From Escherichia coli (GTDB lineage Bacteria; Pseudomonadota; Gammaproteobacteria; Enterobacterales; Enterobacteriaceae), in NCBI RefSeq assembly GCF_013122565.1, contig NZ_CP053258.1: a DNA stretch of 64,000 nucleotides. One strand, 5' to 3'. Of this stretch, positions 2,349-48,945 are shown piece by piece. Position numbers and translations under genes: made by a program. The notes beneath the pieces were generated by a model that saw only the letters and a list, made by a program, of their open reading frames with translations, was not told the origin of the DNA and made no database searches. How positions within the stretch are numbered: position 1 is the first letter of the stretch; each line of letters starts with the position of its first letter.

Positions 2349-3525
2349 ATTGCAGACCGCGCTCTTTCAGGCGTTCGATACCCTGAATCTGCAACGGGTA
2401 AAAACATTTAGCGTTCCACCGATGACGCTTTGCGGTCCGGGCGCGGTGAGCAGTTGTGGGCAGCAAGCGCAAACGCGTGGGCTGAAACATCTGTTCGTGA
2501 TGGCAGACAGCTTTTTGCATCAGGCGGGGATGACCGCCGGGCTGACGCGCAGCCTGGCCGTTAAAGGTATCGCCATGACGCTCTGGCCATGTCCGGTGGG
2601 CGAACCATGCATCACCGACGTATGTGCAGCCGTGGCGCAGCTGCGTGAATCAGGCTGTGACGGGGTGATCGCGTTTGGCGGCGGCTCGGTGCTGGATGCG
2701 GCGAAAGCCGTGGCGTTGCTGGTGACGAACCCCGATAGCACGCTGGCGGAAATGTCAGAAACCAGCGTTCTGCAACCGCGCCTGCCGTTGATTGCCATTC
2801 CAACGACCGCCGGAACCGGCTCTGAAACCACCAACGTAACGGTGATTATCGACGCGGTGAGCGAGCGCAAGCAGGTGTTAGCCCATGCCTCGCTGATGCC
2901 GGATGTGGCGATCCTCGACGCCGCATTGACCGAAGGTGTGCCGTCGCATGTCACGGCGATGACCGGTATCGACGCGTTAACTCATGCCATTGAAGCGTAC
3001 AGCGCGCTGAACGCCACACCGTTTACCGACAGTCTGGCGATTGGCGCTATTGCGATGATTGGCAAATCGCTGCCGAAAGCGGTGGGCTACGGTCACGACC
3101 TTGCCGCGCGCGAGAGCATGTTGCTGGCTTCATGTATGGCGGGAATGGCGTTTTCCAGTGCGGGGCTTGGGGTATGCCACGCGATGGCGCATCAGCCGGG
3201 GGCGGCGCTGCATATTCCGCACGGTCTGGCGAACGCCATGCTACTGCCAACGGTGATGGAGTTTAACCGGATGGTCTGTCGCGAACGCTTTAGTCAGATT
3301 GGTCGGGCACTGCGAACTAAAAAATCCGACGATCGTGACGCTATTAACGCGGTAAGTGAGTTGATTGCGGAGGTCGGGATCAACAAGCGGCTGGCAGACG
3401 TGGGCGCAACCACCGGACATTACGGCGCATGGGCGCAGGCCGCGCTGGAAGATATTTGTCTGCGCAGCAACCCGCGTACCGCCAGCCTGGAACAGATTGT
3501 CGGCCTGTACGCAGCGGCGCAATAA
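2338..3525 (+). CDS. eutG: Iron-containing alcohol dehydrogenase EutG
   Basis: Track ORF 2311-3525 trimmed to ATG at 2338 (MQNELQTALF...), giving 395 aa as recalled for EutG; overlaps eutJ 3' end by 11 nt. Confidence 0.9.
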   Translation: MQNELQTALFQAFDTLNLQRVKTFSVPPMTLCGPGAVSSCGQQAQTRGLKHLFVMADSFLHQAGMTAGLTRSLAVKGIAMTLWPCPVGEPCITDVCAAVAQLRESGCDGVIAFGGGSVLDAAKAVALLVTNPDSTLAEMSETSVLQPRLPLIAIPTTAGTGSETTNVTVIIDAVSERKQVLAHASLMPDVAILDAALTEGVPSHVTAMTGIDALTHAIEAYSALNATPFTDSLAIGAIAMIGKSLPKAVGYGHDLAARESMLLASCMAGMAFSSAGLGVCHAMAHQPGAALHIPHGLANAMLLPTVMEFNRMVCRERFSQIGRALRTKKSDDRDAINAVSELIAEVGINKRLADVGATTGHYGAWAQAALEDICLRSNPRTASLEQIVGLYAAAQ

Positions 3526-26287: not shown

Positions 26288-26371
26288 GCCTGATGTGCCA
26301 CGCTTATCAGGCCTACAAGGTTTCTGCAATATATTGAATTAGCACGATTTTGTAGGCCGGATAAGGCGTTT
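26288..26371. repeat. REP/BIME cluster downstream of cysM (left portion; interrupted by IS)
   Basis: PU copies gcctgatgtgccacgcttatcaggcctac and tgtaggccggataaggcgttt; the last unit continues after the IS as acgccgcatccggc. Confidence 0.8.
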
Positions 26372-32953: not shown

Positions 32954-32975
32954 ACGCATTTTTAACAAGCTGGCA

Positions 32976-33947
32976 TTACTGTTGCAATTCTTTCTCAGTG
33001 AAGAGATCGGCAAACAATGCGGTGCTTAAATAACGCTCACCCGATGATGGTAGAATAACCACAACATTCTTGTTGGTAAAGCTTTCATCTTCTTGTAGTT
33101 TCAACGCCGCAGCAACAGCTGCTCCAGAAGAGATACCTGCAAGAATACCTTCTTCTTCCATTAGACGACGGGCGGTAGAAATGGCTTCTTCATTGGTGAT
33201 GCCAATGACTTTATCGACCAGCTTGAGATCGAGGTTAGCCGGGATAAAACCAGCGCCAATACCCTGAATTTTATGCGGGCCAGGTTTAATCTCTTCACCT
33301 GCCAGCGCCTGGGCGATAACTGGAGAATCGGTTGGCTCAACGGCGACAGAGATAAGATCGGTCTTGCCTTTAGTGCCTTTAATGTAGCGGCTAACGCCAG
33401 TCAGCGTACCGCCAGTCCCAACGCCAGCAATAAATACATCAACCTGACCGTCGGTATCTTCCCAGATCTCCGGACCGGTGGTTTTTTCGTGAATTTCAGG
33501 GTTTGCCGGATTGCTGAATTGTTGCAGCAGCAGGTATTTATCTGGATTGCTGGCGACAATTTCTTCTGCTTTTTGGATTGCGCCTTTCATGCCTTTAGCA
33601 CCTTCGGTCAGCACCAGGTTTGCACCTAACGCTTTCAGCAGCTTGCGGCGTTCAATACTCATGGTTTCTGGCATGGTCAGGGTAAGTTTGTAACCGCGAG
33701 CGGCAGCGACATAGGCCAGTGCAATCCCGGTATTACCGCTGGTTGGTTCAACCAGTTCAACGCCTGGTTTAAGCACGCCGCGCTTTTCGGCATCCCAAAT
33801 CATGTTGGCACCGATACGGCACTTAACGCTGAAGCTGGGGTTACGAGATTCCACCTTCGCCAGAATGCGTCCGTTACCGATGCGATTCAGGCGAACCAGC
33901 GGCGTGTGACCGATAGTCAGCGAGTTATCTTCAAAAATCTTACTCAT
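32976..33947 (-). CDS. cysK: Cysteine synthase A (O-acetylserine sulfhydrylase A) CysK
   Basis: 323-aa PLP-enzyme ORF. Confidence 0.97.
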
Positions 33948-34131: not shown

Positions 34132-34893
34132 TTACCGCCACATCGCGTGTTTATCGCGATAGCAATCGACCCACATCGCCGTCGCGCCACAAACGGCAAC
34201 GGGCATGATGAACAGATTAAGCAGAGGGATCATCGTAAACAGGCTGGTTAAAGCACCAAACTGCATATTGGTGATTTTGCGTGTGCGCAGGGCGGTGCGC
34301 ATCTCTTTAAACGGCACTTTGTGGTTATCGAAGGGGTAATCGCAATACTGGATGGCTAACATCCAGGCGCTAAACAGGAACCACAGTACCGGCGCGACGG
34401 TTTGCCCAATACCAGGGATGAAGTAAAGAATTAGCAATACAATTGCGCGCGGCAGATACCAGGCAAATTTTTGCCATTCGCGTTTCATGATTCGCGGCAC
34501 ATCTTTCATGATACCGAAAATCCCGGTATCTGGCGGTGTAGCGCCAGTCAGTCTTGCTTCCAGTTGTTCAGCCAATAAACCGTTAAACGGAGCGGCAATC
34601 CAGTTAGCAATCGTTGAGAAGAAATAGCCAAACACTAACAGCACAGAGATGACAGCCAGAGGCCACAACAGATAGCTCAGCCATTGTAACCAGTCCGGAA
34701 CATAACTCATGAGAGTCGGGATCCAGACATCGAGTTGCGTAAAGAGCCACCAGAATGCGCCCCCCATCAACAAAATATTGACCAGCAGCGGTAAAATAAC
34801 GAAACGCCGAATCCCTGGTTGCGAGACGAGCTTCCAGCCTTGCGCAAAATAGTAAAAACCGCTGCGTGGGGCAGATGTGAATGATGAAACCAT
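34132..34893 (-). CDS. cysZ: Sulfate transporter CysZ
   Basis: 253-aa membrane ORF upstream of cysK. Confidence 0.93.
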
Positions 34894-35122
34894 AATCAGG
34901 ATGAGCTCCTTTTGACCAATCCCAGGAAAATTCTGCGTATTTTACCGGGTAATTGCGCAATGGACAGTTAGGATATGTTCGAAAAAACAGCAAAAAGCAC
35001 GATTTCATCTATCTTTGTGCTGTGAAAGTTAATAGTGCACTTGCACTTGAGGTAATCGGCAAATACTCTTAGTGAGTAAATGTTTGCCGTGGTGGCAAGG
35101 TGTTAGAACAACAGAGAATATA

Positions 35123-36121
35123 ATGATGCAGGATTTGCGTCTGATATTAATCATTGTTGGCGCGATCGCCATAATCGCTTTACTGGTACATGGTTTCTGG
35201 ACCAGCCGTAAAGAACGATCTTCTATGTTCCGCGATCGGCCATTAAAACGAATGAAGTCAAAACGTGACGACGATTCTTATGACGAGGATGTCGAAGATG
35301 ATGAGGGCGTTGGTGAGGTTCGAGTTCACCGCGTGAATCATGCCCCGGCTAACGCCCAGGAGCATGAGGCTGCTCGTCCGTCGCCGCAACACCAGTACCA
35401 ACCGCCTTATGCGTCTGCCCAGCCCCGTCAACCGGTCCAGCAGCCGCCTGAAGCGCAGGTACCGCCGCAACATGCTCCGCGTCCAGCGCAGCCGGTGCAG
35501 CAACCCGTGCAGCAGCCTGCCTATCAGCCGCAGCCTGAACAGCCGTTGCAGCAGCCAGTTTCGCCACAGGTCGCATCAGCGCCGCAGCCAGTGCATTCAG
35601 CACCGCAATCGGCACAACAGGCTTTCCAGCCTGCAGAACCCGTAGCGGCACCACAGCCTGAGCCTGTAGTGGAACCGGCTCCAGTTATGGATAAACCGAA
35701 GCGCAAAGAAGCGGTGATTATCATGAACGTCGCGGCGCATCACGGTAGCGAGCTAAACGGTGAACTGCTTCTTAACAGCATTCAACAAGCGGGCTTCATT
35801 TTTGGCGATATGAATATTTACCATCGTCATCTTAGCCCGGATGGCAGCGGCCCGGCGTTATTTAGCCTGGCGAATATGGTGAAACCGGGAACCTTTGATC
35901 CTGAAATGAAGGATTTCACTACTCCGGGTGTCACTATCTTTATGCAGGTACCGTCTTACGGTGACGAGCTGCAGAACTTCAAGCTGATGCTGCAATCTGC
36001 GCAGCATATTGCCGATGAAGTGGGCGGTGTAGTGCTTGACGATCAGCGCCGTATGATGACTCCGCAGAAATTGCGCGAGTACCAGGACATCATCCGCGAA
36101 GTCAAAGACGCCAACGCCTGA
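35123..36121 (+). CDS. zipA: Cell division protein ZipA
   Basis: Trimmed to ATG 35123 ([18 protein letters not shown]...); N-terminal TM anchor, P/Q-rich linker, C-terminal FtsZ-binding domain. Confidence 0.93.
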
Positions 36122-36151
36122 TACACTTAAGGCAAATTAACTCCTCTTCGA

Positions 36152-36175
36152 ACCCCCGCTTGTCGGGGGTTTTTA
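36152..36175 (+). terminator. zipA-distal hairpin
   Basis: acccccgcttgtcgggggttttt. Confidence 0.6.
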
Positions 36176-36182
36176 GCATTGA

Positions 36183-38207
<2,025 letters not shown>

Positions 38208-39422: not shown

Positions 39423-39939
39423 AAAGACTCCAGATGATCGATGCTTTCATTGTGCGTTGTTCTGATTGATAAATAAAACTGAATTGCTTATCAATTTGTG
39501 CGCGAGGAGTGTGAGTGAGTTGCTCGCTCGCTTCGACTGGTTGGCAGAGCGGGGGAGGATATCCCGGATGAGACAAATAAGACGTTCGACAAGAGAATCA
39601 GGTGACTACAGAAAAAATCACAGGATGTTATTACTGCTGATGTTCATGTCGGTTTTCGCGTTATCAGAACTGGTTTTAGAACTGCTATTTAATCGATAAT
39701 GCCATTCTGCAGGAAAGCTTTACCTACTTTATTATTTGCGGTGTGGTAAAACCTGGTCACCAGAGGCAGGTTTAATACCAGACGCTGTCTTTTATCAGAT
39801 ATCCCATGTAAATAATAAATGCAATGAATATTAATTCATTATGTATTTATTTTGTGATTGTTTGGTGTTACTAGTTTGTTGGACAAATAACAACTCTAAC
39901 TAATACATAAACCTTGCATAGTGACAGAGTATCGATCTG

Positions 39940-39977
39940 AATGTTTTCAACATTGATATCAAATTGCAATTGATATC
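39940..39977. promoter_or_regulatory. Candidate operator upstream of the NupG-like transporter: inverted repeat ATGTT-ttc-AACAT followed by two TTGATATC palindromes spaced 17 bp
   Basis: Read directly: gaATGTTttcAACATTGATATCaaattgcaaTTGATATCcg, 75-110 bp upstream of the 40051 start. Confidence 0.35.
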
Positions 39978-40050
39978 CGTGGTAAAAAGTATTGGTAAAT
40001 TTGATGAATTTCCGGATATTTAAAGGGGCGGCTCAAAGACGAAGGGGAAG

Positions 40051-41307
40051 ATGGTGAATCTAAAACTACAGTTAAAAGTTCTTTCATTTCTGCAATTCTT
40101 TTTGTGGGGAAGTTGGCTCAACACATTCGGTTCTTATATGTTTATCACGCTGCGTTTTAAGGGCGAAGATATAGGCGCAGTCTACAGTACACTGGGTATC
40201 GCAGCATTAATAACATCAACGTTATTTGGTATCGTGGCCGATAAATGGATTAGTGCTAAATGGATATATGCCGCTTGTCATTTATTTGGCGCGATAACAT
40301 TATTTATCGCAGCATCGGTTACCACGCCTTCGGCAATGTTCATTGTCATTTTACTTAACTCTCTTGTGTATATGCCAACACTCGGTTTGAGTAATACAAT
40401 TTCCTATTACCGCCTACAAACAGCGGGGATGGATATTGTGACAGAATTTCCGCCAATCCGTATCTGGGGCACGATTGGATTTATTGTCGCAATGTGGGCG
40501 GTTAGCCTGGCTGGTTTTGAATTAAGTCATATGCAATTATATATCGGTGCGGCGGCTTCATTAGGCTTGAGCCTGTTCACGTTGACTTTACCAACTGTAC
40601 CAGTGGCGAAATCTAACCAGGCGCAAGGAATGATAGATGTTCTCGGATTGCGTGCATTTACACTGTTTAAAAACAGCAAAATGGCGATTTTCTTTATCTT
40701 TGCCATGCTGCTCGGGGCAGAGTTACAAATTACCGGGATGTTTGGTAATACATTTCTCCACAGCTTTGAGAGCGTTCCAGAGTTTACCAATAGTTTTGTT
40801 GTTACCCATGCTTCTATTCTGTTATCAATTTCTCAGATATCCGAAGTCTGTTTCATTCTTGCCATTCCTTTTTTCCTGAAAAAATACGGTATCAAAAATG
40901 TCATGCTGATGAGCATGGTGGCCTGGATGCTGCGTTTTGGTTTATTCGCTTATGGCGATCCTTCATTCGGTGGTACCATTCTGTTAATTCTTTCGATGAT
41001 TGTTTATGGCTGTGCTTTTGACTTCTTCAATATATCTGGCTCGGTATTTGTTGAACAAGAAGTTGATCCATCGATTCGTAACAGCGCTCAGGGCGTTTTC
41101 CTGATGATGGCCAATGGTTTTGGTTGTATTCTGGGCGGTTTTATCAGTGGTAAAGTCGTCGATTATTTAACAACGGATGGCAATCCACAGTGGTCAACCA
41201 TTTGGCTGGTATTTGCCGGATATTCACTGGTTCTGGCTCTCGCATTTATGGTGTTGTTTAAATATAAACACAACGGTAACCCGACAACGTCCGGTCATTT
41301 CGCCTGA
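40051..41307 (+). CDS. Nucleoside:H+ symporter, NHS family (NupG/XapB paralog)
   Basis: 418-aa 12-TM-like ORF; near-collinear similarity to recalled NupG and to XapB encoded 2 kb downstream (e.g. LQFFLWGSWL, FPPIRIWGTIGFI, GCAFDFFNISGSVFVEQEV). AT-rich codon usage. Confidence 0.85.
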   Translation: MVNLKLQLKVLSFLQFFLWGSWLNTFGSYMFITLRFKGEDIGAVYSTLGIAALITSTLFGIVADKWISAKWIYAACHLFGAITLFIAASVTTPSAMFIVILLNSLVYMPTLGLSNTISYYRLQTAGMDIVTEFPPIRIWGTIGFIVAMWAVSLAGFELSHMQLYIGAAASLGLSLFTLTLPTVPVAKSNQAQGMIDVLGLRAFTLFKNSKMAIFFIFAMLLGAELQITGMFGNTFLHSFESVPEFTNSFVVTHASILLSISQISEVCFILAIPFFLKKYGIKNVMLMSMVAWMLRFGLFAYGDPSFGGTILLILSMIVYGCAFDFFNISGSVFVEQEVDPSIRNSAQGVFLMMANGFGCILGGFISGKVVDYLTTDGNPQWSTIWLVFAGYSLVLALAFMVLFKYKHNGNPTTSGHFA

Positions 41308-41361
41308 TACGGAGTTTATCAAAATTAATAATGTTTTATAGGATTCGCAAAAGAGGAAGTT

Positions 41362-42273
41362 ATGGCAAATCAATTGTATAACCAGTGTCGGGTTTATTGT
41401 GCACCCTGGCGATTAGATGCTTTAAATTTAAATGATATCATTGATCAATGGATTGACGAGGGGCTGTTGCCGCCCCTGATCCATACTTTTCTTCCATATC
41501 GCGATGATGCCGGTGCCTCCAGTGAAGAAGAGATTTTTGTTAACGATGTCGCGAATATGGATAACAGTGTTGGGGTTATCGGTTATTTCGATGGTGGAAC
41601 CTATGATTCCGGTTATGCATGGGCTTTAGGGATGCCTGTTCACCTGGTAACGACAGACTTTCTTATATGGGCAGCGGGGAATTCTTCAGAGTTTTATCCT
41701 ATAAGTAAGCTGATGAATTATGTGGCAAAAGTGGTTTCTGTGTCAGATTCCGATACCAGTATCAGCAATTATCGTGAACAAACCGACGATATCATCAAGC
41801 GTGCGTTGCAAATTTTTCAACAAAATTTAATCGCCGACTTCGGCACGACGATTAATCCAGCAGTACCGGTTACTCCATTGCCGATTGAGTATGACTACTA
41901 TATTGATCCTAACTTTATGTATACCGAACCCTCTCGGGACTTACTGGTGAAGATCAAAGATGCGATCATTAGTGCAGGTAAGACTTTCATCGTTGGCGAC
42001 AACATGAATGATATTGCGACTGATATTGATAACTTAAGAAAATCCAGACAGGCCATCTTTTATTCCGATACCTTTGAGCCGAATGTTGACACCGGCATTA
42101 TGAATGGTATTGCCTATGCATTAGGACAGCAATCGATTATTTATTGTAGCAAGCAACAAAAATATCAATCTGCGCTCGCGACAGATTATTTAAATTTAAT
42201 GATTACCTGGTCGTCAACGGTGGCGCATTCATTTGCGGAACTTGAAACATTGATTGGTAACACAGAAAAATAA
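41362..42273 (+). CDS. Hypothetical protein with two tandem nucleoside 2-deoxyribosyltransferase-like repeats
   Basis: 303-aa ORF with RBS agaggaag; internal repeat ([DS]G..[YI]A[WY]ALG at ~aa 80-95 and ~aa 255-270) resembling the NDT/DNPH1 D-x-G-..-E-x-G-Y-A-x-A-x-G-K-P-V motif. Fold assignment is inference. Confidence 0.6.
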   Translation: MANQLYNQCRVYCAPWRLDALNLNDIIDQWIDEGLLPPLIHTFLPYRDDAGASSEEEIFVNDVANMDNSVGVIGYFDGGTYDSGYAWALGMPVHLVTTDFLIWAAGNSSEFYPISKLMNYVAKVVSVSDSDTSISNYREQTDDIIKRALQIFQQNLIADFGTTINPAVPVTPLPIEYDYYIDPNFMYTEPSRDLLVKIKDAIISAGKTFIVGDNMNDIATDIDNLRKSRQAIFYSDTFEPNVDTGIMNGIAYALGQQSIIYCSKQQKYQSALATDYLNLMITWSSTVAHSFAELETLIGNTEK

Positions 42274-42284
42274 TAGTTAATTTT

Positions 42285-42330
42285 ACTGATTATCAGGTGA
42301 GTGATTGCCTGATAATCAGCTTTTTGTTAG
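42285..42330 (+). terminator. Rho-independent terminator after the 303-aa gene
   Basis: Perfect 12-bp inverted repeat CTGATTATCAGG...CCTGATAATCAG followed by ctttttg. Confidence 0.65.
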
Positions 42331-42501
42331 CCACCAAAGAAAAATATACTGCCGTTATATTTCTCTGCCGGGGAACGATATGATCGATTTCAAAATTATA
42401 TTGAATATCTCTGGAAAATGTATTGGTCACTCGCGACTTTTTCTCGCTATAAAAAAATGTGACTCAGATCTAACGCATAATGCTTATTACAAGGACTTGC
42501 C

Positions 42502-45658: not shown

Positions 45659-45734
45659 TGGTGGGTCGTGCAGGATTCGAACCTGCGACCAATTGATTAA
45701 AAGTCAACTGCTCTACCAACTGAGCTAACGACCC
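45659..45734 (-). tRNA. lysV: tRNA-Lys (anticodon UUU)
   Basis: Reverse complement folds as tRNA: GGGTCGTTAGCTCAGTTGG... anticodon loop CTTTTAA ...CCA. Confidence 0.95.
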
Positions 45735-45738
45735 GAAG

Positions 45739-45814
45739 TGGTGGGTGATGACGGGATCGAACCGCCGACCCCCTCCTTGTAAGGGAGGTGCTCTCCCAGC
45801 TGAGCTAATCACCC
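45739..45814 (-). tRNA. valY: tRNA-Val (anticodon UAC)
   Basis: Reverse complement GGGTGATTAGCTCAGCTGGGAGAGCACCTCCCTTACAAGGAGG...CCA; copy 1 of 3 identical genes. Confidence 0.95.
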
Positions 45815-45860
45815 ACTTCGGTACTTCACATTTTTACAAGAAATTTAGCTGGCGAGAAAG

Positions 45861-45936
45861 TGGTGGGTGATGACGGGATCGAACCGCCGACCCCCTCCTT
45901 GTAAGGGAGGTGCTCTCCCAGCTGAGCTAATCACCC
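45861..45936 (-). tRNA. valX: tRNA-Val (anticodon UAC)
   Basis: Identical copy 2. Confidence 0.95.
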
Positions 45937-45980
45937 ACTTCTCAATTTCTTGCTACACGGCGGAGACTACATAAAGTAGT

Positions 45981-46056
45981 TGGTGGGTGATGACGGGATC
46001 GAACCGCCGACCCCCTCCTTGTAAGGGAGGTGCTCTCCCAGCTGAGCTAATCACCC
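45981..46056 (-). tRNA. valU: tRNA-Val (anticodon UAC)
   Basis: Identical copy 3 (promoter-proximal on minus strand). Confidence 0.95.
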
Positions 46057-48754: not shown

Positions 48755-48830
<76 letters not shown>

Positions 48831-48869
48831 AATTTTGCACCCAGCAAATTTGGTACGTAAACGCATCGT

Positions 48870-48945
<76 letters not shown>

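Follow-up and report, generated by a model that had tools for sequence, protein, structure and literature searches.

Length variation and alternative reading frames in the P/Q linker of Escherichia coli ZipA

The low-complexity tract in the middle of zipA in a 64,000-nt stretch of Escherichia coli DNA (the window) is the known disordered P/Q tether of ZipA, which links the membrane anchor to the FtsZ-binding domain. We consider it very probable that the observations reported here are explained by this known tether, by a common length variant, with repeat slippage as the probable cause of the variation, and by open frames that are not genes. The biological weight of the case is small, given a known tether and a common allele. 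Its practical consequences are that open frames over P/Q/A-rich coding tracts should not be called genes and that the 328 aa of K-12 ZipA is not the sole standard length of the protein, as a protein of 332 aa is encoded in about two-fifths of the complete E. coli genomes.

The gene for cell division protein ZipA occupies positions 35123-36121 (+) and encodes 332 aa plus a stop codon from the annotated MMQDL start. Its identity as zipA is secure. Against the NCBIfam equivalog TIGR02205 (septum_zipA), the full-length protein reaches 414.6 bits, well above the curated cut-off of 119.65, and the gene matches RefSeq-annotated zipA at 99% identity in 5,425 of the 5,426 complete E. coli genomes searched. 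The gene order, cysZ (34132-34893, -), zipA, ligA (36192-38207, +), is that of K-12 and RefSeq. An E. coli ZipA of identical sequence has a database entry (WP_171460536.1 / QJU27524.1) and was seen on only two contigs; at the DNA level, no identical copy occurs among the 5,426 complete genomes, the best match being 99.4%. A role in FtsZ binding and Z-ring anchoring would follow from the 99% identity to the studied K-12 ZipA. A mechanical ORF list starts the gene at an upstream GTG at 35072, which adds 17 codons (35072-35122, +) and gives 349 aa, whereas MMQDL is the start in every RefSeq zipA annotation inspected. ZipA proteins of 349 aa do exist in databases (P0002 and P0003). Extension from the upstream GTG was considered as their source and rejected, because the alignment shows a linker duplication instead. 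Between zipA and ligA, a GC-rich hairpin followed by T5 (36151-36174, +), read from the sequence and by folding, resembles an intrinsic terminator. It has six G-C pairs lengthened by A-U pairs, with a folding energy of -15.5 kcal/mol and z = -2.0. A consensus promoter and terminator scan did not report this hairpin, and Rfam at gathering thresholds gave no match in or near zipA.

The domain layout follows that described for ZipA in PMC6904479, with a single N-terminal anchor, a charged region and a P/Q-rich linker. The transmembrane anchor (aa 7-28; 35141-35206, +) is a hydrophobic stretch in the translation, and its limits, like those of the charged domain (aa 29-85; 35207-35377, +), are taken from that work. 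Within residues 1-85, R and D are the most enriched amino acids, and E is also frequent. The P/Q linker (aa 86-188; 35378-35686, +) was delimited by its composition, 29% P, 25% Q and 15% A, and by its position outside the Pfam ZipA_C match. Its DNA is 65% GC, versus 52% for the window. An earlier note on this DNA had described a P/Q/A-rich, low-complexity linker and had quoted a 43-letter repeat peptide from it; the composition bears out the description, and the peptide occurs verbatim in the zipA translation. The C-terminal domain for FtsZ binding (aa 189-332; 35687-36118, +) is defined by Pfam PF04354, whose match is confined to aa 198-321 (E = 3e-46), and by the C-domain chains of PDB entries 1f46, 1f47 and 1f7w, which match aa 189-332. 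These constructs start at aa 189, and the linker lies outside every solved one.

In the literature, the P/Q domain follows the charged region (aa 29-85), precedes the FtsZ-binding domain and is regarded as a flexible tether without structure (PMC6904479, citing Ohashi et al. 2002). The tether and its disorder are thus already known and are textbook matter for the field. The same article argues that in SMALP particles the P/Q domain can be compact rather than a free-ranging tether (PMC6904479), which counts against a flexible-tether explanation. The tether probably acts through its length and flexibility rather than through a fold and, for that reason, tolerates substitutions and in-frame indels. 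The FtsZ C-terminal linker, a disordered linker of another bacterial division protein, offers a likeness from general knowledge. Both are low-complexity spacers in which length and flexibility outweigh sequence and in-frame indels are tolerated, while the flanking folded domains are conserved; they belong to different proteins and differ in composition. The closest known system is the P/Q domain of K-12 ZipA itself (Hale and de Boer 1997; Ohashi et al. 2002, cited in PMC6904479), which is alike in gene, position, domain order and neighbours. The two proteins share 99% identity outside one four-residue gap and an equally P/Q/A-rich composition. The window protein differs from that of K-12 by four extra residues, which form a second PVQQ unit, and by H120R, P152S, P163S and A183V (window numbering), of which the last two do not occur in the other four alleles of the K-12 comparison alignment.

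The K-12 gene has 987 nt and encodes 328 aa, so the 332-aa protein of the window is longer, as the earlier note had supposed, and the whole difference is a single 12-nt gap in the alignment with K-12. DNA alignment and breakpoint analysis place the gap at one PVQQ unit, GTGCAGCAACCC (35495-35506, +), which is present here and absent in K-12. It is followed by a second, kept unit, GTGCAGCAGCCT (35507-35518, +), which matches the first at 10 of 12 bases and is the only one that K-12 has, such that the K-12 protein reads QPVQQP at this site. Eight nucleotides of exact homology, GTGCAGCA, are found at both breakpoints. These observations agree with the repeat expansion or contraction that had been suggested, in the form of one 12-nt PVQQ unit with two imperfect copies here and one in K-12.

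Allele frequencies were obtained from two short-query searches of the 5,426 complete E. coli genomes, in which identity bands split gapped from ungapped matches; both searches agree. The long form accounts for about 2,300-2,375 of about 5,425 records (42-44%), with O157:H7 and UTI89 as examples, and the short, K-12-like form for about 3,050-3,118 (about 56%), with K-12, BL21 and O111 as examples. Larger changes at the site, defined as matches covering <80% of the query, make up about 70 records (about 1.3%). The 332-aa long form is therefore not specific to this strain but a common allele in nature. One could ask whether errors of sequencing or assembly in the window produced the 12-nt difference, since low-complexity DNA is error-prone and one complete-genome record, NZ_CM172810.1 (H86), has a 2-nt length anomaly, with 138 nt where the query has 140. 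The likelihood of such an artefact is negligible, and the population data have already refuted it: the long form occurs in about 2,300 independent complete genomes, O157:H7 and UTI89 included, and the exact protein is already on record as WP_171460536.1. In H86, the linker may contain a frameshift or have been misassembled. The polymorphism between long and short ZipA can be seen in public annotations and is no surprise in a linker that is disordered; a literature search found no paper specific to ZipA linker-length polymorphism.

The direction of the change can be refined from the outgroups. E. albertii and E. marmotae have 18 nt more than K-12 at the indel site, which suggests that the longer state is probably ancestral and that K-12 carries a contracted, derived state; this polarity rests on two outgroups whose linkers have diverged and are hard to align. 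Of the two possibilities left open by the earlier note, contraction in the K-12 lineage is thus more likely than expansion here. The short form may also have arisen more than once. In a neighbour-joining tree of 17 alleles, it appears in the K-12/O111 group and separately in LHM10-1, whose zipA differs from that of the window by 7 SNPs but from the remaining short alleles by 12-16 SNPs. The 12-kb neighbourhood of LHM10-1 is also the closest match to the window, at 99.1%. As these two allele backgrounds are distant from each other, the PVQQ unit may have been lost independently on two or more occasions, which would mean recurrent slippage. The second origin could instead be a short gene-conversion tract. 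R120H had been considered as a marker of independent short-allele origin and was rejected, because R120 occurs in many records of the short allele (1,675) and the site is not diagnostic; the 17-allele SNP tree replaced it.

The 12-nt indel belongs to a wider pattern of length variation. The alignment of linkers across strains that the earlier note had proposed, run on 26 E. coli and Escherichia ZipA proteins, shows that lengths differ rather than being identical to the reference. Within this set, the shortest E. coli ZipA has 295 aa and the longest 375 aa, and the 309-aa and 308-aa alleles are found on 827 and 371 contigs, respectively. All large indels among the 26 proteins fall within aa ~99-188; the charged domain shows a few changes of 1-3 residues, and the C domain (aa 189-332) has no indels, with 141 of 144 residues invariant. 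Across nine alleles, the ratio of synonymous to non-synonymous differences in the C domain is 60:2, again nearly invariant. One ENA-derived protein, P0013, has 16 additional residues, SRRISLFFFVVLFSPP, immediately behind the membrane anchor; this insert and the anomaly in NZ_CM172810.1 look like artefacts.

Indels of 12, 69, 111 and 129 nt are seen, all multiples of 3. The 111-nt deletion, in strain EM10-18-28, joins copies 1 and 3 of a 26-nt repeat via the shared sequence CAGCAGCC. The 309-aa allele has a 69-nt deletion, which joins what are two copies of GCGCAGCCG in typical alleles; in this window, the GCGCAGCCG repeat is interrupted by two synonymous changes. All three deletions examined at the DNA level are flanked by direct repeats of 8-9 nt. 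The region thus has the features of a slippage-prone tract, with indels that keep the frame, large indels confined to the low-complexity region and breakpoints in short direct repeats. A repeat search of the linker returned direct repeats of 10-26 nt that are imperfect (67-92% identity), together with one exact 10-nt pair, and Tandem Repeats Finder reported no array in zipA. The linker is accordingly a low-complexity tract with imperfect short repeats and not a tandem array. Three imperfect 26-nt direct repeats span 35420-35556 (+), with copies at 35420-35445, 35492-35517 and 35531-35556; they are 69-73% identical, and each codes for a motif like Q-P-x-Q-Q-P. The 12-nt unit came out of the repeat search as a separate family.

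The linker DNA is rich in short imperfect direct repeats made of CAG, CCG and GCN codons. A mechanism consistent with these data is one in which replication slippage or unequal pairing between repeats of 8-9 nt would remove or duplicate whole codons. The window has the two-PVQQ form (332 aa) and K-12 the one-unit form (328 aa), probably derived by contraction. Slippage is the mechanism to which the microhomology at the breakpoints points. The linker resembles simple-sequence contingency loci in that short direct repeats are the sites of change, slippage is the probable cause, and one change or more appears recurrent. It differs from them in having no perfect multi-copy array, in that the reading frame is always kept and in showing no on/off switching. 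A phase-variable contingency locus is ruled out by the lack of an array in Tandem Repeats Finder, by the presence of only two imperfect copies and by the fact that all alleles are in frame.

We infer that the four extra residues are functionally neutral because the domain is disordered and a wide natural range of lengths is tolerated; it is unlikely that the four-residue difference changes function. An opposing interpretation is that linker length is under selection, with lineages tuning the reach of the tether or evading factors that act through ZipA, and that the indels are adaptive. In favour of this interpretation, both major lengths are at high frequency, the 309-aa and 308-aa alleles are present on 827 and 371 contigs, the 12-nt change occurs on two allele backgrounds, and the ratio of synonymous to non-synonymous differences is 61:32 in the linker versus 60:2 in the C domain. 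The higher non-synonymous share is, however, what relaxed constraint gives, and the natural range of 295-375 aa fits weak constraint better than tuning. Moreover, four of about 100 disordered residues would shift the expected reach by only a few percent. Adaptive length change thus seems improbable. We assign an equally small chance to a stronger form of the idea, in which the tether is an actively mutating length module whose repeats recurrently make in-frame alleles (295-375 aa) that are then selectively kept. Were it true, the reach of the tether would matter for how the Z-ring is anchored or for how sensitive cells are to inhibitors that depend on ZipA, for instance division blockers encoded by phages, and lineages would keep different lengths among repeat-made alleles, including the PVQQ unit lost at least twice. 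Natural E. coli tolerate tethers of about 66 to about 146 residues. These natural lengths are a ready-made allele series for tests of tether length versus Z-ring anchoring; a literature search found no experiment on the length tolerance of the ZipA linker.

The linker is also overlapped by long open frames on both strands. Three of these had been named before and exist exactly where they were placed: an ORF of 101 aa in frame +2 relative to zipA (35340-35645, +), an antisense ORF of 101 aa (35349-35654, -) and an antisense ORF of 66 aa whose third codon positions coincide with those of zipA (35524-35724, -). A fourth, absent from the earlier note, is an antisense ORF of 81 aa that is codon-aligned with zipA (35258-35503, -). 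All four were judged to be non-coding. In the five alternative frames of zipA, stop-free runs reach at most 102, 58, 105, 82 and 111 codons. These lengths were compared with a synonymous recoding null, in which the protein is fixed and codons are redrawn from the window's own usage in 2,000 trials. Recoded genes equal or exceed the observed runs in 69-90% of cases (P = 0.69 for 35340-35645, +; 0.70 for 35349-35654, -; and 0.90 for 35258-35503, -). The amino-acid sequence of ZipA and codon usage explain the lengths, which supports the reading of these ORFs as compositional artefacts.

The tract itself adds less to this openness than had been supposed. The earlier note held that the low-complexity linker generates the long spurious ORFs; the frames are indeed non-coding, but the tract adds only modestly to their openness. 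When the codons of the whole gene are permuted, runs equal to or longer than those observed arise in 17-63% of trials (P = 0.17-0.63), and the permuted genes still average runs of 67-106 codons. Nested alternative-frame runs of >=100 codons number 76 in the 64-kb window, or about 1.2 per kb of long ORF, and three of them lie in zipA. The P/Q tract is therefore only a modest contributor, and runs of about 100 codons are routine. Run length tracks linker length, from 65-74 codons in the 295-aa allele to 102-111 here and up to 148 in the 375-aa allele. The frames are open on both strands on account of codon content: in most registers, no stop codon can be made from codons for P, Q or A or from their reverse complements.

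Antisense overlapping genes have been proposed in enterohaemorrhagic E. coli, and the frames considered here are like those proposals in being open for about 100 codons opposite an annotated gene. They are unlike them in showing no excess length, constraint, family or promoter-like signal. Substitutions were compared across nine alleles, including those of E. albertii and E. marmotae. Variable sites in the linker are distributed 15/14/54 over zipA codon positions 1/2/3, with 54 of 83 at position 3, and in the zipA frame synonymous differences outnumber non-synonymous ones 61:32. The best candidate for a real overlapping gene is the antisense ORF at 35524-35724 (-), in which synonymous differences exceed non-synonymous ones by 39 to 20. 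This ratio arises from wobble alignment alone, because the wobble positions of the ORF coincide with those of zipA, and four differences within it make or remove stops. The +2 frame keeps its boundary stops in E. albertii and E. marmotae, and the frames as a group are open for 66-111 codons, yet these lengths are no greater than the ZipA sequence predicts (P = 0.69-0.90). In other frames, non-synonymous changes exceed synonymous ones by a factor of 5-6: 67 against 13, with one stop change, in 35340-35645 (+), and 71 against 12, also with one stop change, in 35349-35654 (-). In 35258-35503 (-), 23 changes are non-synonymous, 12 are synonymous and one affects a stop. Every frame thus shows either a non-synonymous excess or the gain or loss of stops, and not the pattern of purifying selection.

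Searches for other signs of coding gave no support. Pfam matched none of the four products to a family, and none is present in a collection of 15 billion proteins, which is weak evidence because that look-up needs an identical sequence. No antisense feature to zipA is annotated in the RefSeq records inspected, and a simple consensus scan of 34850-36250 found no sigma-70-like promoter on either strand. A literature search for antisense or overlapping genes at zipA gave nothing relevant; one relevant-looking paper was discarded because its sigma-54 site is in cysK, not zipA. We regard a real overlapping gene at this locus as very improbable. The data support instead the reading that the alternative-frame ORFs are likely chance by-products of zipA codon content and not genes. 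The description of them as compositional artefacts in the earlier note is therefore upheld by their expected lengths, by the absence of a Pfam family and by a substitution pattern that favours the zipA frame only.

Several other features of the window were recorded. An exact copy of a 17-nt sigma-54 binding motif, CTGGCATTACTGTTGCA, is present at 32970-32986 (+); it corresponds to the intragenic sigma-54 site IA18 in cysK, for which zipA is the nearest downstream gene (PMC4591121). A match to the Rfam sRNA family ES036 (CssrF) at 26309-26351 (-) scores 40.9 bits and just exceeds the gathering score of 37.6. The segment 30000-42000 has a best match of 99.1% among the 5,426 complete E. coli genomes (LHM10-1, CP52E and XJ5.2). 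Because the best 12-kb match is only 99.1% and that of zipA only 99.4%, the window appears to come from a sparsely sampled E. coli lineage. The region 39450-42400 is a rare accessory islet, present in only 16 of the 5,426 complete genomes with a best identity of 98.7%. It contains ORFs at 40051-41307 (+) and 41362-42273 (+), between yfeH and a xapA-like ORF, and RefSeq relatives identify its genes as a nucleoside permease and a nucleoside 2-deoxyribosyltransferase. Further downstream are two tRNA clusters, one with Lys(ttt) and three Val(tac) genes (45659-46056, -) and one with two Ala(ggc) genes (48755-48945, +).
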